DNA from: Thermoplasmata archaeon
GTDB taxonomy: Archaea > Thermoplasmatota > Thermoplasmata > Lutacidiplasmatales > UBA184
Length of the DNA stretch: 49,718 nt
Direction: 5' to 3'
Assembly (NCBI GenBank): GCA_021828665.1
Contig: JAJZDH010000001.1
Coordinates: 1 to 49,718 of the forward strand
Below are positions 29,251 through 48,742 of this stretch, piece by piece. The translations under genes were made by a program, and so were the position numbers. The notes beneath the pieces were generated by a model. That model saw only the letters and a program-made list of their open reading frames with translations. It was not told the origin of the DNA and ran no database searches. The first letter of the stretch is position 1. Every line of letters begins with the position of its first letter.

Positions 29251-29325
29251 TGGGACTGGCCAGATTCGAACTGGCGTCTCGGAGTCCCGAACCCCGAAGG
29301 ATGGACCAAGCTACCCCACAGTCCC
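29251..29325 (-). tRNA. tRNA-Pro (anticodon CGG), no encoded CCA
   Basis: The reverse complement reads GGGACTG TG GGGT AGCTTGGTCC ATCC TT CGGGG TTCGGGA CTCCG AGAC GCCAG TTCGAAT CTGGC CAGTCCC A. It has a 7-bp acceptor stem, a 5-bp T stem with a TTCGAAT loop, and a 5-bp anticodon stem with loop TT-CGG-GA. The D/anticodon junction is one nt longer than canonical in my hand fold, so the fold should be confirmed. Confidence 0.85.
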
Positions 29326-39234: not shown

Positions 39235-39391
39235 CGGCGTCCGGTTGGGGGAGGATATGGGGTCAGCTAGTTAATCCCTTTGATACCGACCGACGGCCGC
39301 CTCCGCCGGAGGGATCGGCCGGGATGGACCGGAGCCGCGCCTTCCGGGTCCGGGGTCCGTTCCGGACCGGGCCGGCCGGGGGGCGGTCGGC

Positions 39392-39733
39392 TCAGTACGG
39401 CTCGAGGTCGCCCGTGATCGGGTCGATCTCCGCGGCCGGCGCCGGGCCGAGGCCGAGGCAGGTCTTCGTCCCCGGAGCGACCTCGTCGGACCCGGCATCC
39501 TCGACCATCGCCGAGGGGATCCCTCGGGCGGCCGCCTCGCGCTCGATCGCCTCGAGCTCCGCCAGGGTCGGCGCGAGGAGGAGGATCTTCCTCTGACCGG
39601 ATCGGCCCCACGCCTCCGCCCACGCCGGCCGCCGCCGGGCGGCGACGCCGCTCGCCCGCACGGCGGCGTCGGCGGCCTGGACCGCCGCCCGGACCGGCGC
39701 CATCCGGAGCTCCCCGCGAAGGACGAGAACCAT
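39392..39733 (-). other. pth2: Peptidyl-tRNA hydrolase Pth2 (archaeal/eukaryotic type) domain; possible independently translated 113-aa product from the internal ATG at 39733
   Basis: MVLVLRGELRMAPVRAAVQAADAAV...GQRKILLLAPTLAELEAIEREAAARGIPSAMVEDAGSDEVAPGTKTCLGLGPAPAAEIDPITGDLEPY. It is collinear with archaeal Pth2 from its first residue (hhhVR.DL.M..GK...Q..HA) to the C-terminal ID.ITG.L motif. The internal ATG is preceded by GGACGTGAag, which is one mismatch from GGAGGTGA. Confidence 0.8.
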
Positions 39734-42097
39734 CTTCACGTCCGTCGGTGGGGCCGGTCGGGATCCCGGCCCGATCGGCTCGCCGGCGGTCCCGCCCTCC
39801 CTGCCTCGCGGGGAAGGGCGGGCCCGGCTCCGGCGGCCCGGGGGCGACGAATCGGCCACCATCCGGGCCCCGACGAGCGCGAAGAGCCCGAGCCCCACGC
39901 CGGCGACGCCGAAGAGGGTGAGGACGGTGCCCACGGTGCCGTTGTACCACGCGACGGCGGGCGGCGGCACGGGCGCCTCTACCGTCACGTTGATCGACTG
40001 GGCGACCTCCCGGCCCGTGGCATCCCGGACGATCACCGACGCCTCGTAGGTGCCGGCGGCGGCGTAGGTGTGCGTCAGCGAGGCGTTCGGGGATCCGGCG
40101 CCGTCCCCCAGCGACCAGATGAAGGTGAACGGGGCGGTCCCCCCCGCGATGGCCGCGCCCAGCGTCACGGTGAGGTTGAACGGGGGCACGTTCGCCAGGA
40201 TCGCCACCTGGGGGTCCGAGTTCACGACGACGGTCACGCCGCCGCTGGCGAACGCGCCCACCGAATCGGCCACCCCGACGCGGGCCGTGAACTTCCCGGG
40301 ATCGGTATAGGCGTACTGCGGATCGGGTCCGCTGCCGGTACCCTGGCCCGGGCCGAACGCCCAGGAGTAGCTGAAGGGGGCGGTGCCGCCGTCGACCGCG
40401 GCGGCGAACGAGATCGGATCGCCCAGATCGGTGACGCGGGGCACCGCCTGCACCTCCGCGACGGCGACGAAGGGGTTCACCGCCTCGAGGAGGGAGGCGT
40501 TCGTCGCCACCCCCGTCGCGTTCACGAGGCTCACGGTGACATTGAAGAGACCGGGGCGGCCGAACGAATGGGTGGCGTTCGCGCCCTGGGAGTGGTTCCC
40601 GTCGGAGAAGTTCCAGAGGAAGGTCATGGGCGGCAGGCCGCCCGTGACGAACCCTTCGAAGGTCGTCGGGACGTCGACGGTGGTCGGGTTCGTGAGGGAG
40701 ATCACCGAGGCGGTCGGCGTGGGGACGACGACGATCGAGTTGAAGAGGGTGGCGGAGCCGTAGGTGGAGTCCCGGACGGTCACGGCGATGGCGAAGGTCC
40801 CGGTCTCGAAGGTGGGACAGGGGACCGCGGCCCGCGCGCTCGCGCCGGAGCATCCGGGCGGCAGGACCGCGTAGGTGTACGTGTACGGCAGCACCCCGCC
40901 CGCGGCGTACACGTGGATCCAGAAGGTATCCCCGACCACCACCGCCGGCCGCGAGACCGAGACGTTCTCGCCCGAGAACGCGTCCACGGCGGCCCAGGTG
41001 TTGCTCGGCACCGTCAGGCCGTACGGGGTCCCCACCGCGCCGCCCCAGTACAGGACCAGGTAGCCGGTCGCACCGTCGAAGGCGAGCGCCGGCTCCCCGG
41101 ACGGGGCCGGTGCCGCGCTGCCGACCTCCGTGATCCGGGCCCAGCCGGCGGCGGAGAATCCCCAGAGGGTGAGCGCGTCGGTCCCGGGGTCCTGGGAGAG
41201 GACGGCGCCGTCCTGGTAGGTGCTGTCGAAGGCGGCCGCCTCGGCGCCGGGGGGACTCACCGCCGTGGCGACCTCCGTCCAGGTCCGGTTCCGGTACTCC
41301 CAGGTGTCGTTGAGCGGCTGGCTGCCCTCCACGCCGCCCGTGAGGACCACCTCGCCGAGGAGCGGATCGGCGAAGAGCACCGCGCCGATCCGCGGCGCCG
41401 GCGACGGCCCCGCCACCGCGACCCGGGTCCAGTTCTCCCCGGCGAACTCCCAGGTGGTGCCGGAGGCGGAGAAGAGGAGGAGCCGCCCGGAGAACGGGTC
41501 GTAGGCGATCGAGCTCGGGAACTGCTGGAGCGGCGGCCGCCCCGGCCCGGAGAGGTTGCTCCACACCCCGCGGGAGAAGCCGTAGGTGAGCCCCCGTCCG
41601 AAGTCGTAGGCGACGACCCGGCTGCCGTTCGGGTCGTAGGTGAGCGCGGTGTCGGCGCCCGGCGGCGGGCCGTTGTCGCACGCGGCCCCCCCGAAGTTCC
41701 CCGGGCAGACCTCCTGCCAGGCTCCGTTCGCGTACGCCCAGGTGTCGCCCACCGGCTGGGCGGTGGTCGGGGAGACCCCTCCGAAGAGGAGAATCTCCCC
41801 ATCGAAGGCATCGTAGGCCATCGCCGCGCCGTACCGGCCCGGGGGGCTGGACCCGGGCGTCAAGTTCGCCCAGCTGTAGCTCGGGGGGATCCCCGGCGTG
41901 ATGCCGTGGGGGTGGGCCGCCGCCGGAACCGCCGGGGGGGCGGTGGCCGGCACGATCCGGTCGACGGCGACCGGGGAGGCGGGCCGGGGGGCGGGAACCG
42001 TCCCGTGGGCGGGGCCCACCGGGGGGAAGGCGAGGCAGAGCAGGACGACGGAGAGGACCGGCCCCAGACGGCCCGCCAGCGAAACGGCTCGGTACAT
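39392..42097 (-). CDS. Kelch beta-propeller / 4x PKD surface protein with TM helix, continuing in frame into a complete Pth2 peptidyl-tRNA hydrolase domain (901 aa as one ORF)
   Basis: Signal is LGPVLSVVLLCLAFPPVGPAHG. About six Kelch blades (GDTWAYANGAWQEV, GTTWEFAGENWTRV, NDTWEYRNRTWTEV...). PKD signatures: MTFLWNFSDGNHS..HSFGRPGLFNVTV, FSYSWAFGPG..YAYTDPGKFTARV, FTFIWSLGDGAG..HTYAAAGTYEASV. TM is VGTVLTLFGVAGVGLGLFALVGA (39866-39934). A 44-aa basic/Pro linker leads into the Pth2 domain with no intervening stop. Confidence 0.8.
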   Translation of the reverse strand: MYRAVSLAGRLGPVLSVVLLCLAFPPVGPAHGTVPAPRPASPVAVDRIVPATAPPAVPAAAHPHGITPGIPPSYSWANLTPGSSPPGRYGAAMAYDAFDGEILLFGGVSPTTAQPVGDTWAYANGAWQEVCPGNFGGAACDNGPPPGADTALTYDPNGSRVVAYDFGRGLTYGFSRGVWSNLSGPGRPPLQQFPSSIAYDPFSGRLLLFSASGTTWEFAGENWTRVAVAGPSPAPRIGAVLFADPLLGEVVLTGGVEGSQPLNDTWEYRNRTWTEVATAVSPPGAEAAAFDSTYQDGAVLSQDPGTDALTLWGFSAAGWARITEVGSAAPAPSGEPALAFDGATGYLVLYWGGAVGTPYGLTVPSNTWAAVDAFSGENVSVSRPAVVVGDTFWIHVYAAGGVLPYTYTYAVLPPGCSGASARAAVPCPTFETGTFAIAVTVRDSTYGSATLFNSIVVVPTPTASVISLTNPTTVDVPTTFEGFVTGGLPPMTFLWNFSDGNHSQGANATHSFGRPGLFNVTVSLVNATGVATNASLLEAVNPFVAVAEVQAVPRVTDLGDPISFAAAVDGGTAPFSYSWAFGPGQGTGSGPDPQYAYTDPGKFTARVGVADSVGAFASGGVTVVVNSDPQVAILANVPPFNLTVTLGAAIAGGTAPFTFIWSLGDGAGSPNASLTHTYAAAGTYEASVIVRDATGREVAQSINVTVEAPVPPPAVAWYNGTVGTVLTLFGVAGVGLGLFALVGARMVADSSPPGRRSRARPSPRGREGGTAGEPIGPGSRPAPPTDVKMVLVLRGELRMAPVRAAVQAADAAVRASGVAARRRPAWAEAWGRSGQRKILLLAPTLAELEAIEREAAARGIPSAMVEDAGSDEVAPGTKTCLGLGPAPAAEIDPITGDLEPY

Positions 42098-42125: not shown

Positions 42126-44384
42126 TCAGTCTCCGAAGATGGATCGGCGCGGCGGCGGGGGCGGGTTCTTCCCCTGGCGGCCGCCCGCGCGCGGCGGGTT
42201 GGTCGGGGCCTTCGCCCCGGGCCGGGCGGTCAACGCCCCGGAGGGGGCTGCCACCGCCATGCTCACCTTGCGCTTGACCCGAAGGCGGGTGAACCCCGCC
42301 GCGATCGCGCCGCTCGCGATCGGGGCCGGGGCGAGCAGCCCCGGGCCGGCGCCCGGCGGCACCGGAGTCGACCCCGGGGCCCCGGGAGGCACGACGGGGG
42401 CGGTGGCGGGGGGCGGGAGGATCGGGGAGGGGGGAGGCGGCGGCAGGACGTTCTGGATCGGCGGCGGAGGCGGCCCGCTCGGCGGCTCCAGGGTGAGCAG
42501 CCCCGGAGGGAACGATATCGATTCCACCGTGGAGTTCTCGAACGGCCGGACGGTGACGGAGGTGAAGCTTCCGTTCACCGCGGTGCTGCCGAGGCCGTAG
42601 CAGGAAGGGGTGATGCAGGCATCCACCGGATACGTCCCGAACGGCGGCGCGGTGGCGTAGGCGTTGAACGAGGCCGACCAGCGGGCCCGGTCCACGAACT
42701 GGTTGCGGTCGGGGGCGGCGCTCCATCCCCACTCCAGGCCCACGACCCCGGGGGCGATCGGCACGAGCGTGGTGTTGGTGTCGCAGTCGGTGGTGAACCC
42801 GATCGGATCGAAGCAGCTCGCGGTCGGATCGAGCCGGCTCAAGTTGGTGGAGAACCCGAGGTTCCCGAACGGGACGAAGAGCATCTCCGGCGCCGCCGGG
42901 AGCGCGACGGAGAGGTCGGGGACCGCCGGTCCCGGTTCGTAGACCGCCTCGAGGCTCAAGGTGATCCGGGTGACGTTCGTCGACGCCGGGCAGGAATCGG
43001 CATTCCCGATGCAGATCCCGGGCGGGTCGGCGGAGACCGAGAAGTCGAACCCCAGCGGCGGAGCGACGAAACTCCAGGTATCGTTGAGAAGGCCGCCCGG
43101 GAGGGTCCCGTTCGGCCACTGCTCCCCGCCGAAGGCGAGGAGGTAGCCGTCGGCGGCGTCGTAGGCGAGCGGCGAGAGGCCGAGCCGGAGGGTCGGGTTC
43201 ACCGTGGGGACCGGAAACCAGCTTCCCCCGAGGTACCCCCACGTCACGTTGACGGGCGTCCCGTACTGCGGGTAGACCTGCTCGCCGACGAGGACGACGT
43301 ACGCGACGGCCGGATCGTAGGCGACCCACGCTCCCCAGACGAACGGCGGGCTCGTCGCGGGGAACTCCTCGGACCAGTGCCCCCGGGCGTAGGTCCAGGT
43401 GACGTTCGGCTCGAGGCCCGCGAGACCGGGCGCACCGTTCCCGACCAGCAGCACGTACCCGTCGGCCGCGTCGTACGTCATCGACTCCTGGTAGGCGTCC
43501 GGCGGCGGGCCGTGGATCCCGAGCGGCGTCCAGCCGCTGCCCCGGAAGATCCAGGTGTCGTTCGCGACCCCCCCCGAGCCGAGGACCCCTCCGAACAGGA
43601 GGACGTAGCCGTCCCGGGCGTCGTAGGTGATCGGGGCATCGAGACGGGGCGAGGGACCGGCGATGTACAATTGGGTCCAGCGGCCGCCGGAGAAGGTCCA
43701 GGTGTCCCCGTTGACGGGGCAGCTGATCCGGGGGCAGGCGAGCTCGCCGCCGAAGAGCAGGACGACGCCGTCGGCGGCGTCGTAGACCAGGCTCTCCCCG
43801 ACGCGCGGCGAGGGACCGGAGATGTTGAGCCGGGTCCATTGGCCCCCGGCGTACGTCCACGTGTCGGCGTAGGCGCCCGCACAGCCGGCCTGGCAGACGG
43901 GCGCCGTCAAGGTGGCGTTGCTGCCGCCGAAGAGCACCACCTCGGAAGCGGCGATGTCGTAGACCATCTGGGCGTCGGTGCGGGGGCTCGGGGCCCGGGA
44001 GGTGTTGATGCGCTGCCAGGTAGGCCCGGAGAGGGCGGCGCCCGGCCGCTCGGCGCCGCCGATCCCCGGGCAGGTGGCGGCGTACGGACCGGAGAGCCGG
44101 CACCCGGAGACGGGGGGGCTCGCGACGGTGGGGGCGGCCGCGAGGGAGGCGAGGGCCTCGGCCAGCGGACCGCCCGCGGGGCGGTCGGCGACCGGAGCCG
44201 CCCCGGCCGCCGGCACGGTGGCGGGGAGGAGCGAGGCGAGGAGGCAGACGAGAAGGCCGAGGATGGCGAGGCCCCGGGCAAGGTGGCCGTCCCGGCGGGA
44301 AGGGCCGGGCCGTCGTCCGGCGCGCGCCGCCGCCGCGCCGTCCTCCCGTTCCGCCTCCCCGGCGCTACGCGACGACGCTGACAT
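42126..44384 (-). CDS. Kelch beta-propeller surface protein with conserved membrane-proximal module, Pro-rich stalk and C-terminal anchoring module, ~752 aa
   Basis: First ATG at 44384 (MSASSRSAGE...). The track ORF starts at a TTG at 44429. Signal/anchor is LAILGLLVCLLASLLPATVPAAG. Six blades: ADTWTYAGGQWTRL, GDTWTFSGGRWTQL, NDTWIFRGSGWTPL, NVTWTYARGHWSEE, NVTWGYLGGSWFPV, NDTWSF. The C-terminus is homologous to that of CDS 19856..22021. The start overlaps the upstream gene by 20 nt. Confidence 0.8.
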   Translation of the reverse strand: MSASSRSAGEAEREDGAAAARAGRRPGPSRRDGHLARGLAILGLLVCLLASLLPATVPAAGAAPVADRPAGGPLAEALASLAAAPTVASPPVSGCRLSGPYAATCPGIGGAERPGAALSGPTWQRINTSRAPSPRTDAQMVYDIAASEVVLFGGSNATLTAPVCQAGCAGAYADTWTYAGGQWTRLNISGPSPRVGESLVYDAADGVVLLFGGELACPRISCPVNGDTWTFSGGRWTQLYIAGPSPRLDAPITYDARDGYVLLFGGVLGSGGVANDTWIFRGSGWTPLGIHGPPPDAYQESMTYDAADGYVLLVGNGAPGLAGLEPNVTWTYARGHWSEEFPATSPPFVWGAWVAYDPAVAYVVLVGEQVYPQYGTPVNVTWGYLGGSWFPVPTVNPTLRLGLSPLAYDAADGYLLAFGGEQWPNGTLPGGLLNDTWSFVAPPLGFDFSVSADPPGICIGNADSCPASTNVTRITLSLEAVYEPGPAVPDLSVALPAAPEMLFVPFGNLGFSTNLSRLDPTASCFDPIGFTTDCDTNTTLVPIAPGVVGLEWGWSAAPDRNQFVDRARWSASFNAYATAPPFGTYPVDACITPSCYGLGSTAVNGSFTSVTVRPFENSTVESISFPPGLLTLEPPSGPPPPPIQNVLPPPPPSPILPPPATAPVVPPGAPGSTPVPPGAGPGLLAPAPIASGAIAAGFTRLRVKRKVSMAVAAPSGALTARPGAKAPTNPPRAGGRQGKNPPPPPRRSIFGD

Positions 44385-47300
44385 CCGTCCATCCTGAGGT
44401 CGTGTAGCTCCAGAGATCCCCTTGGCCAAAGCCGGCGATCCCCCCGGGGATGGCCCCGGAGAGCCCCGAGTACCCGGCCGGCGACGGGGAGGTCAACCCC
44501 CCGAACAGGAGATCGGCGCCGTCCGGGCCCGAGAACGGATCGAAGACCATGCCGGCACCCGAGCGCGCCCCGAGCGGCGCGGGACCGACGACCGGACCGG
44601 ACCAGGTCCCCGAGGCGGGATGGTAGATCTGGAGCTCGTCGACCGGCTGGCCCGAGACCCCCACGCCACCGTAGACGAGCATCTCGTCGAGCCCGGTGTC
44701 GAAGCTCGCCGCCGGGTCGAAGACGGCCCGCGGTCCCGGGGAGAGCTCGGACCACCCGAGCTGGATCGAGATCCCGGAGGGGGCGGCCGGGGGCGGTGGC
44801 GGGAGGGCCGGGAGCGCCCAGAGCGCATCCTGGACGCCCCCGGCCGCGGGGGCCATCCCGCCGTACAACAGGTAGGTCGCGGAGAGCGGGTCGAACACCA
44901 TCCGGCCGCCGAAGCTCGCCGGGGGGCCGATCTTCGGCATGGTGTCCTGGCTCCACGACCCGTTGAAGAAGCTCCACGCGTCGCCCAGGGCGCCGGAGCC
45001 GTTCCAGCCGCCGTAGACCAGGGTGATGTTGGCGAACGGGAACTCCGAGGCCACCGCGGCATCGGCCCGGGCCGGGGGGCCGCCGGAGATCGTCACGTTC
45101 GACCAGCCGGCGCCCGTGAATTCCCAGGTGTCGTTCAGCGGGGCGGTGCAGGCCCCGTTGTTCGCGGCGTTGTCCGGGCAACCGCCCCAGAGCAGGATCC
45201 CGTCCCCGCTCGGGGCGTCGAAGAACAGGATCGGGTCCCACCGGGGCGACGGCCCGCAGGTCGCCCCGCAGACCTCCTTCCACAGACCCCCGGCGAAGAT
45301 CCAGGTCGTCGCGGTGGACGGGCCGAGGTTGCAGGCTCCCGGCACGAACGTGCCGCCGCAGCCGCCGAAGAGGAGGACGTACCGGTCCACGGGGTTGTCG
45401 ACCAGGGTCGCGCCGAATTCCGGTAGCGGAGCCGTCGGTGGCGGTTGGAGGGCGGTCGACGGGAGCGGCTGCCATCCTCCGGACCGGAACGCCCAGCCCA
45501 TCCCGCCCTCCAGCGCGTTCGAGGTGCCGATCCCCCCCCAGAGGAGCGGGGCCTGGAGCCCGGGATTGTACGACAGGGTGGCGAGGTAGACGGCCGGAGG
45601 GGCGGCGGTGGTCCGAAGCTCGGTCCAGACGCCCCCGCCGGTCGCATTGAAGCGCCACGTGTCCGCGAGCGGGCAGGGCCGGCCGCAACCACCGAAGAGG
45701 AGGAGCCCGCCGAGCTCCGGGTCGTCCGAGAAAGCAGCCTCCTGCCGGGCCGGCGGACCCTCGGTGCGGCAGGAGAGCGAACTGCAGGCGGTCCATTGAC
45801 CGCCGCCGAAGGTCCACGTATCCGCCATCGGACAGATCGCGAAGCCGCAACCACCGAAGAGGACGAGCTTCCCGGCGGTGGAATCGTAGGCGAAGGAGGC
45901 GCCGTCCCGCGGGGCCGGGGCGTGCCGGGTCCCCACCTCCGTCCAGACCCAGTCGGAGAGGGCGGCCAGGTACTGGAGGGTCCACGTGTCGCCGAGCAGC
46001 CCGACCGGTCCGTAGCCGCCGAAGAGGACCACCTCCCCCGAACTGGTGTTGAACGCCATGGCGGCGGAGCTCCGGGGCGAAGGGACCGCCCCCTCCGGTC
46101 GGAGCTGCTGCCAGCGGCCGTGGCCGTACTGCCAAAGGTCGTTCAGGTACCCTCCCGAGGAGTTCTGGCCACCGAACAAAAGGACCGATCCGTTGTCGAG
46201 GGTGGTCGCCGTCAGGCTGGCCCCGAACCGCTCCGGGGGGGAGGGAGTTCCGGCCGGAGGGACCGCCACCTGCCAGGCGTCCGACCGGGTCGCGGGGGAG
46301 TACGGGTCGAAGGTCCAGGTCGACCGGTTGCCGCAGCTGAAGCCGCATCCGGAGAAGAGGAGGGTCGCGTTGTCGCTCGCGTCGTACGCCGACGCCGCCC
46401 CGTATTCGGGCGGCGGGAAGGACTGCGGACCGATGAGCCCGGAGTAGGGGAACTCCTCGGGCGGCGCGGAGAGCGGGTTCGCCGCCCAGGTGTCCCCGAG
46501 CGGCGACCCGATCGTGGAGGTGCCCCCGAAGAGGACCACTCCCCCGTACGGGGTGCCGACCAGCCCCGCGTCGTATCGGGGGACCGGGGCGGTGACGGCG
46601 CCGAAGGCCCCCGTGATCGCGCCGGGGACCGCCGGGCCGTCCCAACCGTCCTGGGGAGACCCCCATCCGGGGGGGGCGGCGAACGGCATCCAGTGCAACG
46701 GGGAGCCGCCGAAGACCCACCATCCCGCGCCGGGCTCCGTCGCATTCCCGAGGACGGTGCCGTTCGCTCCGATCCCGCCGAACATGAGCGCCGCTCCGGC
46801 GAGGCCGCCGCCGGAGTAGCTCGTGAGCGCGGCATCGTACCGCGGCGTGGGGCACGGATAGTGCGCGGAGCAGTTGACGGCGTTGAAATATTCCCACCAG
46901 GAGCCGTCGTAGAACAGCCACGTGTCCCCGAGCAGGCGCGCGCCGCGGTCGCAGTCCACGACACTGTTCTGGCATCCCCCGAACAGGACGACCCCGCCGG
47001 AGGTCCCGAGCTGGGCCATCGCGGCACCGAACCGCTTCGGAGGATTGAACGCCGGTCCGGGCGGAGTGTACACCTGCTGCCAGCGGCCGCTCCGGAACGC
47101 CCACGTGTCGCCGGCGGGACAGGAGCGCAGCGCGCATCCTCCGAACAGGATGACCTCCTGATCGGAGCCGTCGTACGCCATGCTCGCCTGGAACCGCGCC
47201 GTGGGCGATGCGAAGGAGGAGATGGCGGTCCATCGACCGACACCCCCGCTCGGATCCAGGTAGCTCCAGGTATCCGACAAGAGCTCGTACGGTCCCGGGC

Positions 47301-48132
47301 AGCTGTTGTTGGCGAGCATGGTGAGGGAACCGTTCGCGCACCCCCCGAACAGGAGCGTGTAGCCGTCCCCGTAATCGTACGTCATCGCCGCACCCCAGCG
47401 CGGCCCGGGACACCGCGAGGCGGAGCAGGCGAGGTAGGGGGTCACGTTCCACCAGGTGTGGTCGCCCACATCGAACTGCCAGGTGTCCCCGTACACCGAG
47501 GTGTTGTAGGCGGGGTAGCCCGGCACCAGGGTCCCACCGTCGGTGGCGGCCCCCCCGAAGAGGAGCACATCGAACCGGGTTCCGTTGAGGAAGAGGGCGA
47601 GCGAGGCCCCCACCCGGGGGCTCGGACCGCCGCCGGGAACCGCCAAGGCGCCGGGCGCCGCCGAACGGCCCGCGCGGAGCCCGGGGGCGACCGCGGGCCC
47701 CGGGGTCGCGAGGGAGGCCGGCACCGGGCCGGTCGCCGGGTTCTGGAGCCCGCACTGGGCCTCGGAGCCGGTGCGGACGCAGTGCATCGGGACGCCGCGG
47801 GCCGGTCCGCTCCCGTTGTCCAAGGAGGCGATGGCGGCGGTCAGGCCGCCCGTGCCGCCGCCCGCGCCGGCGGGGGACGAGATCGGCGCCCCGACGGTGC
47901 CGGGGCCGGCGGGCAAGGTGCCCGGGATCCCCGTCGCCACGAGGAGCGCGACGGCCAAGAGCGCGAGCCGCCACGGGCGGAGGCCCCTCCGGCCCCCCCG
48001 AATCCGCCTCGGACCGGGGCCGGGACCCTCGGTGGCGGCGGTCCGAGAAGGGAGGCCCGGGTCGGGAGCTCGAGGTCCCGTGGCCGCCGTGGCGTTCTCC
48101 ACGTTCCAGCGGACGGCGGGGGGCTCACGCAT
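44365..48132 (-). CDS. Multi-propeller Kelch-repeat secreted/N-terminally anchored protein, 1255 aa, ~18 blades, no C-terminal TM
   Basis: Internal ATG at 48132 (MREPPAVRWN...WRLALLAVALLVATGIPGTLPAG). About 18 copies of the blade signature (G/N/A)DTW.F..G.W, for example GDTWQFDVGDHTWWNV, GDTWAFRSGRWQQV, GDTWLFYDGSWWEY, ADTWTFGGGQWTAC, NDTWEFTGAGWSNV, GDLWSYTTSGWTDV. The track ORF's upstream 200 codons are His/Arg/Pro-rich and overlap, in another frame, the clearly real 4-TM gene at 48282..48707. Confidence 0.85.
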   Translation of the reverse strand: MREPPAVRWNVENATAATGPRAPDPGLPSRTAATEGPGPGPRRIRGGRRGLRPWRLALLAVALLVATGIPGTLPAGPGTVGAPISSPAGAGGGTGGLTAAIASLDNGSGPARGVPMHCVRTGSEAQCGLQNPATGPVPASLATPGPAVAPGLRAGRSAAPGALAVPGGGPSPRVGASLALFLNGTRFDVLLFGGAATDGGTLVPGYPAYNTSVYGDTWQFDVGDHTWWNVTPYLACSASRCPGPRWGAAMTYDYGDGYTLLFGGCANGSLTMLANNSCPGPYELLSDTWSYLDPSGGVGRWTAISSFASPTARFQASMAYDGSDQEVILFGGCALRSCPAGDTWAFRSGRWQQVYTPPGPAFNPPKRFGAAMAQLGTSGGVVLFGGCQNSVVDCDRGARLLGDTWLFYDGSWWEYFNAVNCSAHYPCPTPRYDAALTSYSGGGLAGAALMFGGIGANGTVLGNATEPGAGWWVFGGSPLHWMPFAAPPGWGSPQDGWDGPAVPGAITGAFGAVTAPVPRYDAGLVGTPYGGVVLFGGTSTIGSPLGDTWAANPLSAPPEEFPYSGLIGPQSFPPPEYGAASAYDASDNATLLFSGCGFSCGNRSTWTFDPYSPATRSDAWQVAVPPAGTPSPPERFGASLTATTLDNGSVLLFGGQNSSGGYLNDLWQYGHGRWQQLRPEGAVPSPRSSAAMAFNTSSGEVVLFGGYGPVGLLGDTWTLQYLAALSDWVWTEVGTRHAPAPRDGASFAYDSTAGKLVLFGGCGFAICPMADTWTFGGGQWTACSSLSCRTEGPPARQEAAFSDDPELGGLLLFGGCGRPCPLADTWRFNATGGGVWTELRTTAAPPAVYLATLSYNPGLQAPLLWGGIGTSNALEGGMGWAFRSGGWQPLPSTALQPPPTAPLPEFGATLVDNPVDRYVLLFGGCGGTFVPGACNLGPSTATTWIFAGGLWKEVCGATCGPSPRWDPILFFDAPSGDGILLWGGCPDNAANNGACTAPLNDTWEFTGAGWSNVTISGGPPARADAAVASEFPFANITLVYGGWNGSGALGDAWSFFNGSWSQDTMPKIGPPASFGGRMVFDPLSATYLLYGGMAPAAGGVQDALWALPALPPPPPAAPSGISIQLGWSELSPGPRAVFDPAASFDTGLDEMLVYGGVGVSGQPVDELQIYHPASGTWSGPVVGPAPLGARSGAGMVFDPFSGPDGADLLFGGLTSPSPAGYSGLSGAIPGGIAGFGQGDLWSYTTSGWTDVSVVA

Positions 48133-48281
48133 CTCGTCATCAAACCCGTCGGGTGCGCATAATGGTTTGTTCCGAACGGTTCCGGACGGCCCCGCGGACG
48201 CCGCGATAACCGCTCCGATCCCGCGCGAGGCCCGTCGCTGCGGCAGAAGCTCCGGCTCTCCGCGGGCGGGGGAGTCCGTCC

Positions 48282-48707
48282 TCAGGCACCGACGCCTTGC
48301 TTCGGCTTTTCCCCGCCACCCGAGCTGATGCCTTCGCCGTGCCCCTGACCGGCGGTGAAGGAGAAGATGAGCAGGAACGTCACGGCGATGACGAAGGCGA
48401 TGATGATGATGGCGTCGAGAGGAATCGTCTGGGGGTTCGTGTACGTGAACCCCGACCCGAGGAACGGTATGGGCGACTTGGGGGCGAGGAAGGTGAAGAT
48501 CCCCCAGGTCACACCGATGAAGATGAGGGTGATGGAGATGTCCCGGTCGCTGTAGGGGTAATCCTCGGGAAGCTTCCCGTACCGGAGGACCAGGAACAGG
48601 AACATCAGGAACAAGGTGATCAGCAAGGTGTACGCGAGGAAGACTCCGATCGCGAGATAGAGGACGGCAAAGACCGTCAGCGCAATGGCATAGAGCGGGA
48701 CATCCAT
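48282..48707 (-). CDS. Small integral membrane protein, 141 aa, four predicted TM helices
   Basis: MDVPLYAIALTVFAVLYLAIGVFLAYTLLITLFLMFLFLVL...ITLIFIGVTWGIFTFLA...LDAIIIIAFVIAVTFLLIFSF, then a Gly-rich tail. GGAG lies about 10 nt upstream of the ATG, and a TTTAAGAG box lies about 35 nt upstream. The DNA is locally less GC-rich, consistent with Ile/Phe/Leu-rich coding. Confidence 0.7.
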   Translation of the reverse strand: MDVPLYAIALTVFAVLYLAIGVFLAYTLLITLFLMFLFLVLRYGKLPEDYPYSDRDISITLIFIGVTWGIFTFLAPKSPIPFLGSGFTYTNPQTIPLDAIIIIAFVIAVTFLLIFSFTAGQGHGEGISSGGGEKPKQGVGA

Positions 48708-48742
48708 CGGAACGCACTCCGTTCGGGACCAAAGAAGGGCAC

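Follow-up and report, generated by a model that had tools for sequence, protein, structure and literature searches.

We analysed a window of 49,718 nucleotides (nt), that is, positions 1 to 49,718 of contig JAJZDH010000001.1 in the Thermoplasmata archaeon assembly GCA_021828665.1, and focused on one open reading frame (ORF) of 901 amino acids (aa) in which a Kelch-PKD surface protein runs without interruption into a Pth2-like (peptidyl-tRNA hydrolase) domain. Read from its N-terminus, the ORF consists of a signal peptide, a Kelch region, a PKD region, a transmembrane (TM) helix, a linker and the Pth2-like domain, as listed in Table 1. This architecture, together with its coordinates and the lack of any stop ahead of pth2, had been proposed in a sequence-only reading made without database searches, and ORF translation, Pfam matches and hydropathy bear it out. 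PKD_4 and PKD each match three stretches of the ORF, the Kelch region is conserved in an alignment with the orthologs P0122 and P0123, and hydropathy analysis shows just two hydrophobic segments, at aa 4-32 and aa 720-745. In all respects but one, the protein is thus a Kelch-PKD type-I surface protein; the exception is the tail behind the TM helix, which spans 157 aa as against 15-30 aa. Since nine Arg/Lys face four Asp/Glu in the 44-aa linker, the tail is predicted from charge to lie on the cytoplasmic side. The GC content at third codon positions (GC3) of the fusion frame stays at 0.83-1.0 throughout the ORF, the linker included. A GC3-based gene scan of the window was too noisy for annotation, and antisense frames are likewise high in GC3.

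The C-terminal domain was examined with family models and structure prediction. PF01981 (PTH2) covers aa 787-899 and profile positions 1-113 of 115, with 97.7 bits over a cut-off of 23 and an E value of 6.6e-28 (Pfam), so the 113 C-terminal residues do match the PTH2 hidden Markov model, a check that the sequence-only reading had proposed for its assignment. The earlier description of a full-length Pth2 therefore holds for length, but not for the active site, whose residues are altered (see below). Among the NCBIfam models, TIGR00283 is passed (87.5 bits, cut-off 82), and the stricter equivalog model NF003314 is not reached (101 bits, cut-off 126). Against the PDB, the domain matches 1wn2 with an E value of 9e-23. 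The predicted fold is intact: the AlphaFold2 (AF2) model has a predicted local distance difference test (pLDDT) score of 95, and Foldseek superposes it on 1wn2 with a TM-score of 0.95 and a root-mean-square deviation of 1.1 Å, the other matches being 1q7s, 2zv3, 1rlk, 3erj and 1xty.

Table 1 Coordinates of the Kelch-PKD-Pth2 ORF, its parts and the sites discussed in the text
Feature	Position (nt)	Strand	Evidence or remark
Whole fusion ORF, 901 aa	39392..42097	-	No internal stop; TGA at 39392-39394
Signal/hydrophobic segment, aa 1-32	42002..42097	-	Kyte-Doolittle peak at aa 4-32
Kelch-type beta-propeller, ~aa 75-370, extracellular	40988..41875	-	Pfam Kelch and Beta-prop matches, aa 74-287
PKD repeats, ~aa 381-706, extracellular	39980..40960	-	PF18911 and PF00801; TIGR00864 at aa 381-571
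Single TM helix, aa 721-744	39866..39937	-	Top hydropathy segment
Arg/Pro/Gly-rich linker, 44 aa, aa 745-788, predicted cytoplasmic	39734..39865	-	Fast-evolving
Remnant of the canonical pth2 5' region within the linker	39734..39793	-	37 of 60 nt identical to L092 upstream, ungapped; background 18.5 ± 3.7
Shine-Dalgarno-like GGACGTGA	39736..39743	-	Two bases ahead of ATG 39733; possible internal ribosome-binding site
Pth2-like domain, aa 789-901	39395..39733	-	PF01981; paralog of canonical pth2, ~79-81% aa identity
V802-R803, replacing invariant Gly-Lys (SsPth2 G17-K18)	39689..39694	-	G and K each in 76/76
D810, replacing invariant His (SsPth2 H25)	39668..39670	-	Alignment; Asn in P0193
D867, Asp of the xDAG motif (SsPth2 D86)	39497..39499	-	Unchanged in the window; the 96% clade has Glu
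D871, replacing invariant Thr (SsPth2 T90)	39485..39487	-	T in 76/76

The read-through is not confined to the window. A search with the full-length protein returned P0121, a protein of 901 aa that is 96% identical to the window fusion and also carries PF01981. Its 90% cluster contains seven members of 901-902 aa, encoded on seven contigs from NCBI metagenome-assembled genomes (MAGs, with DAHV/DAIF accessions), ENA assemblies (k141_ contigs) and Logan. These members fall into two clades separated by 77-80 differences over 2706 nt (~3%). All of them share the same open frame, the six copies available as DNA show no disruption of it, and the linker of P0192 is longer by a single Arg owing to an in-frame insertion of 3 nt. 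The fusion is genuine at the DNA level. That two neighbouring genes were joined by an error of sequencing (an option of the sequence-only reading) or of assembly, through loss of a stop or a shift of the frame, is next to impossible: apart from the origin of the window in a metagenome-assembled contig, nothing specific speaks for it, and the same frame is found on seven contigs, which come from three assembly sources and two diverged clades, with a variant longer by exactly one codon. It should be mentioned that the 113-aa domain used alone as a query missed the 901-aa fusions, though they are 96-100% identical to it, while the full-length query found them; the lack of long matches in the domain-only search is therefore not evidence against fusions. 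Word-indexed protein searches with a single domain can miss long multidomain carriers.

The relatives of the domain present a different arrangement. All 120 that were listed are free-standing Thermoplasmata proteins of 113-143 aa, and an alignment-based scan of GTDB species representatives found 80 of 80 pth2 loci to be free-standing. The nearest cluster, formed by P0001, P0197 and P0198, is ~79-81% identical to the fused domain. The gene order around canonical pth2 is conserved and reads SRP54, p179 (a membrane/coiled-coil protein of 179 aa), pth2 and ABC transporter. Within the window, we found no second pth2, SRP54 or p179, in agreement with the sequence-only reading as far as pth2 is concerned. 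A search of the rest of the genome for a second copy, which that reading had suggested, proved decisive, as canonical pth2 was found at the SRP54 locus in fusion-bearing assemblies: GCA_027315865.1 (fusion L098, canonical L093), GCA_027315895.1 (L101 and L092), GCA_027377395.1 (L099 and L087), ERZ27237336 (L084 and L089) and ERZ27237364 (L100 and L090). The canonical P0198 is also present in GCA_027315945.1 (L094). Moreover, the window clade of the fusion consistently goes with the canonical variant P0198 and the 96% clade with P0197, and divergence between the clades is alike at the two loci, with a synonymous divergence (dS) of 0.02-0.06. The fused domain is a duplicated paralog, with the canonical copy present in the same genomes. 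It is not a free-standing pth2 with its own start and Shine-Dalgarno (SD) sequence at the SRP54-p179-pth2 locus. The earlier proposal of a genuine fusion that tethers Pth2 to the membrane thus stands as far as the DNA goes, but what is fused is a second, duplicated copy and not the essential Pth2 of the organism. The presence of the canonical copy in the same genomes therefore removes what had appeared striking, the attachment of an essential enzyme to a surface protein.

Two further observations concern canonical pth2 genes. In public data, some of this clade are annotated as proteins of 113 aa and others as proteins of 125-128 aa. At 13 codons upstream, there is a conserved ATG or TTG preceded by a GGAGG-type SD (TTG with GGGAGG in L092 and L003), which suggests that the longer form is real and that many of the 113-aa calls are truncated. 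Besides, two pth2 loci each were seen in two other Thermoplasmata MAGs, SMAG_U10668 (L008 and L061) and JOPF193 (L046 and L048). The JOPF193 pair is nearly identical and probably reflects redundancy of the bin; the SMAG_U10668 pair differs in sequence and may represent a real second copy or contamination, and both of its members keep GK and H.

We then compared the fused domain with its relatives residue by residue. Across 76 related species, the alignment has 38 columns with a conservation of 95% or more, of which the window domain retains 31 and misses seven. Four of the seven missed columns are invariant (76 of 76), and the changes there are G14V, K15R, H22D and T83D, which map to G17, K18, H25 and T90 of the S. 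solfataricus enzyme SsPth2 in the alignment to 1XTY. The same four residues occur in each of the four solved Pth2 structures with alignments shown. The four invariant positions are changed in seven of seven fusions, with Asn in place of Asp at the His position in P0193, so the fused copy lacks the invariant active-site residues of Pth2. Fromant and colleagues reportedly assigned, in 2005, a catalytic role to K18 and D86 of SsPth2. In the human enzyme, the putative active-site network comprises K81, Q85, D145 and T157 (PMC10217894), of which K81 corresponds to K18 of SsPth2. The yeast Pth2 mutant D174A is hydrolase-inactive (PMC9892010); judged by its position in the 208-aa protein, yeast D174 would be the Asp of the xDAG motif. 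Given that the invariant Gly-Lys, His and Thr are replaced, together with the Asp in one clade, the fused copy most likely is no working hydrolase.

These replacements bear directly on whether the tail could be an active enzyme held at the membrane, in the manner of eukaryotic PTRH2/Pth2. Several features would fit such a role, namely the full-length PTH2 match, the passing of the TIGR00283 cut-off, the fold that is predicted to be intact, the conservative nature of K->R and D->E, the retention of the Gln, the second Thr (GTKTC) and the GQxK Lys, and the eukaryotic precedent of an anchored Pth2 (PMC9892010). However, all four invariant residues are replaced, H->D and T->D are non-conservative changes, the domain stays below the NF003314 cut-off, and a housekeeping copy is kept elsewhere. 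We consider a hydrolase working at the membrane very improbable.

The origin of the fused copy was traced by comparison with a sister species, GCA_054637415.1, which has a syntenic array of Kelch genes, a Kelch-PKD gene, a 400-aa gene, a 78-aa gene and an AA_kinase gene. Unfused Kelch-PKD orthologs end 15-30 aa past the TM helix. The sequence-only reading had expected that a stop between the surface gene and pth2 in relatives would mean plain adjacent genes. The ortholog in the sister species, P0122 (769 aa), stops 30 aa past the TM helix, and the gene next to it belongs to the rve family. We looked for a pth2 remnant at this syntenic locus and found none, the pth2 of that species being located at the SRP54 locus; the unfused arrangement is thus ancestral. 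DNA homology to the sister ortholog continues through the TM helix and then ends. From the other direction, homology to canonical pth2 reaches at least 60 nt 5' of ATG 39733, into the linker (Table 1). Met789, which had been taken as the start of Pth2, is indeed encoded by ATG 39733, but the native start of the clade lies 13 codons further upstream and is lost here. In most relatives, it is found 13 codons ahead of KMVLVL, with a "GR.SMP" pattern. In the fused copy, the native TTG start reads GGG, the native SD GGGAGGG reads GGCGAGC and the 13-codon N-terminal extension has diverged.

The duplication can be dated relative to these splits. The fused copy and L003, in which pth2 is 99% identical to the canonical gene, differ by a dS of 0.24, as against 0.66-0.79 to the sister species, which argues for a duplication within this lineage. 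It would be later than the split from the sister species and earlier than the split of the fusion clades.

L003 itself (ENA ERZ27237044, k141_899934, nt 1-902) was considered as an orthologous unfused locus, as it is 81% identical and has the same downstream flank, and was rejected, being 99% canonical over nt 306-796. The contig is a mosaic of three parts. Its nt 1-305 match neither the canonical nor the fusion locus; nt 306-796 are 99% identical to the pth2 of the canonical SRP54 locus, including 150 nt of the 3' end of p179; and the last codons of the ORF together with nt 797-902 match the downstream flank of the fusion locus (L084 type). Either the assembly joined the two paralogs into a chimera, or L003 comes from a real recombinant strain in which an intact pth2 precedes the 392-aa gene. 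At the syntenic locus of the sister species, the rve-family (integrase/transposase) gene (L085:10759-11709) occupies the position that the pth2 copy has in the window lineage, and this site may be a rearrangement hot spot.

To follow how the copy changed after duplication, we polarised substitutions with the sister species as the outgroup and estimated the ratio of nonsynonymous to synonymous rates (omega). The stem of the fusion clade carries 26 nonsynonymous and 8 synonymous changes (omega ~1.25). The canonical branch carries 3 and 9 (omega ~0.13; Fisher p = 0.004). Within the fusion crown, the Pth2 part shows 5 nonsynonymous and 7 synonymous changes (omega ~0.27), with P = 0.026 against neutrality and p = 0.038 versus the stem. 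The corresponding counts are 7 and 4 for the linker (omega ~0.75) and 25 and 29 for the ectodomain (omega ~0.38). The analysis was redone with genuine canonical loci in place of L003 and gave the same result. The pattern is a burst of replacements followed by constraint, the latter half of which is based on 12 changes. The burst on the stem also counts against an active tethered hydrolase.

These rates bring in the possibility that the tail is a passenger relic, which would share the same origin but be without function, a decaying pseudogene that is translated only because stops are rare in DNA of 69% GC. The stem omega, the loss of the native SD and start, and the loss of four invariant active-site residues, with more following within the clade (D867E, D810N and P887S), are all in keeping with such decay. 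Nor is an open frame by itself much of an argument: another frame (ORF 39267..41681) is also open across the entire pth2 region, and the sequence 5' of pth2 in relatives contains open in-frame stretches as long as 228 codons. The chance of being in frame is 1 in 3. On the other hand, the crown omega departs from neutrality and from the stem, 31 of the 38 conserved columns are still retained, and not a single frameshift has occurred in 471 nt across seven assemblies, in which the sole indel is the one of 3 nt, as compared with a 5-nt indel between the fusion clades in the adjoining intergenic region of 157 nt. On balance, we regard a functionless tail as somewhat unlikely.

We also considered whether the domain is made on its own, as a nested gene or isoform. 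In this case, translation would also start at ATG 39733 or GTG 39739 by means of GGACGTGA and give a free Pth2-like protein of 113 aa. As the sequence-only reading had stated, the SD-like sequence is one mismatch away from the consensus GGAGGTGA (7 of 8 positions), and its 2-nt distance to the ATG equals that of GAGGTGA-cc-ATG at the gene start 19563. The canonical paralog has CGACCTCA in its place, and all three differences (3/3) are toward GGAGGTGA. The domain has changed more slowly than the linker (omega 0.21-0.27 versus 0.75), as expected if the domain alone matters. Against this, octamers with one mismatch to the SD are common, 92 being observed in the window and 65 expected by chance, the mismatch of GGACGTGA falls inside the GGAGG core, and although GGACGTGA is conserved in six of six fusion DNAs, these have diverged by only 3%. 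The linker is 80% GC and has no AT-rich promoter-like stretch, so a free product would require internal initiation on the long mRNA. Such a product would have the same altered active site, and canonical pth2 is already present. An independently translated form is, in our estimate, unlikely.

Taken together, the data favour, with a probability of roughly 0.55, a young duplication and fusion that gave the surface protein a catalytically degenerate, Pth2-like cytoplasmic tail under what is probably weak selection. According to this scenario, the housekeeping pth2 would have been duplicated in a recent ancestor, and the copy, which included a short part of the 5' leader, would have come to lie just downstream of the Kelch-PKD gene. 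The stop of the surface gene would then have been lost, as would the SD and the start codon of the copy, so that translation of the type-I membrane protein would not end behind the TM helix but go on, by way of a basic and disordered linker, to a cytoplasmic domain of Pth2 fold. The essential peptidyl-tRNA hydrolase role would stay with canonical pth2 at the SRP54 locus, and the fused copy, freed of it, would have changed quickly, with replacement of the Gly-Lys, His and Thr, and of the Asp in one clade. Since the frame has remained intact and amino acid change has slowed down since the clades split, the tail is best viewed as a folded, non-catalytic module, for instance one for binding or dimerising, which the cell tolerates and which is probably under weak selection.

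Several points weigh against this scenario. The AF2 model is driven by the alignment of canonical relatives and is no proof that the domain still folds with its mutations. The case for purifying selection in the crown is built on 12 substitutions, and the difference from the linker is not significant (Fisher p = 0.41). Within the clade, residues that used to be invariant continue to change, which resembles continuing decay, and the conservative K->R and D->E changes could leave some residual activity. Finally, the co-occurrence of the fusion and canonical loci depends on MAG binning.

A more elaborate version of the duplication-fusion scenario would make the tail an exapted pseudoenzyme on a surface receptor, possibly accompanied by a free isoform from ATG 39733, that binds tRNA, ribosomes or a partner, or else dimerises. 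If true, a Kelch-PKD sensor or adhesin at the cell surface would be linked to the translation or quality-control machinery. From our analysis, we judge this quite improbable.

The surroundings of the fusion gene were also inspected. Directly upstream, two more genes for Kelch-repeat surface proteins lie in tandem on the minus strand (42126-44429 and 44365-48732); gene calls in relatives give them lengths of 752 aa and 1255 aa, and their ends overlap. The neighbouring Kelch ORF, 767 aa long, has a low-complexity Pro/Gly/Arg tail of ~50 aa behind a hydrophobic segment and a basic stretch, and its stop is just 28 nt ahead of the ATG of the fusion. On the other side, the intergenic region 39235-39391 between the fusion and the 392-aa gene contains TATCAAAGGGATTAACTAG, the sole AT-rich stretch nearby, which is kept in all fusion loci. 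It may serve as a promoter of the 392-aa gene, in which case transcription of that gene would not depend on the fusion gene. The sole RNA gene found in the window by ARAGORN and Rfam is a tRNA-Pro(CGG) at 29251-29325 (minus strand).

The locus offers a datable case, at the species level, of the birth of a multidomain protein through duplication, loss of a stop and a start, remodelling of an active site and possibly renewed constraint. It also provides a natural set of substitutions (K->R, H->D, T->D and D->E) with which the residues that Pth2 needs for catalysis could be told apart from those it needs only for folding. For annotation, the automatic labels "PKD domain protein" and "aminoacyl-tRNA hydrolase" are both misleading for this ORF. 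In addition, we take TIGR00283 to be in use as an archaeal single-copy marker; if it is, the fused copy may be counted as a duplicate and inflate the estimates of MAG contamination.

Among known systems, the fused domain shares its fold and its full-length match with the archaeal Pth2 enzymes of S. solfataricus (1XTY), P. horikoshii (1WN2), M. jannaschii (2ZV3) and T. acidophilum (1RLK). Unlike these, it is not free-standing, lacks its own start and SD, carries replaced active-site residues and exists beside an intact gene. The surface part, in turn, is alike in signal, Kelch, PKD, C-terminal TM helix and basic tail to the tandem paralogs in the window and to the orthologs P0122 and P0123 (771 aa). 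The latter two lie at the syntenic locus and are 69-70% identical over aa 1-745, but end in the short tail described above rather than in one of 157 aa.

Anchored Pth2 proteins are known from eukaryotes, that is, PTRH2 (Bit1) and yeast Pth2 of the mitochondrial outer membrane, in which the Pth2 domain, as is predicted for the fusion, faces the cytoplasm behind a single TM segment on its N-terminal side. Yet the eukaryotic anchor is short and N-terminal and the catalytic residues are kept, whereas here the anchor is the C-terminal TM helix of an extracellular Kelch-PKD protein of 745 aa and the residues are altered. The fusion therefore does not belong to the eukaryote-type anchored Pth2; it arose independently and recently, at the species level, and since its nearest relative is the organism's own archaeal pth2, there is no orthology between the two. 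Yeast Pth2 does have an anchor-dependent role that needs no hydrolase activity (PMC9892010), a precedent for non-catalytic use of the fold and a parallel to the proposed exapted tail.

Public data hold other PTH2 fusions, namely GT2-Pth2, Peptidase_C15-UBA-Pth2, D123-Pth2, RRM-Pth2 and Pth2-ParcG, in which PTH2 is mostly C-terminal, and no Kelch-PKD-TM partner was found among the multidomain PTH2 proteins there. Pseudoenzyme domains typically arise by duplication and subsequent loss of catalytic residues beside an intact enzyme, with the fold conserved. The fusion resembles them in its burst of replacements followed by constraint, the renewed constraint being weakly supported (12 substitutions). 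The architecture is thus new and limited to a single species-level clade, while the processes that would have produced it, namely duplication, stop loss and pseudoenzyme formation, are known.

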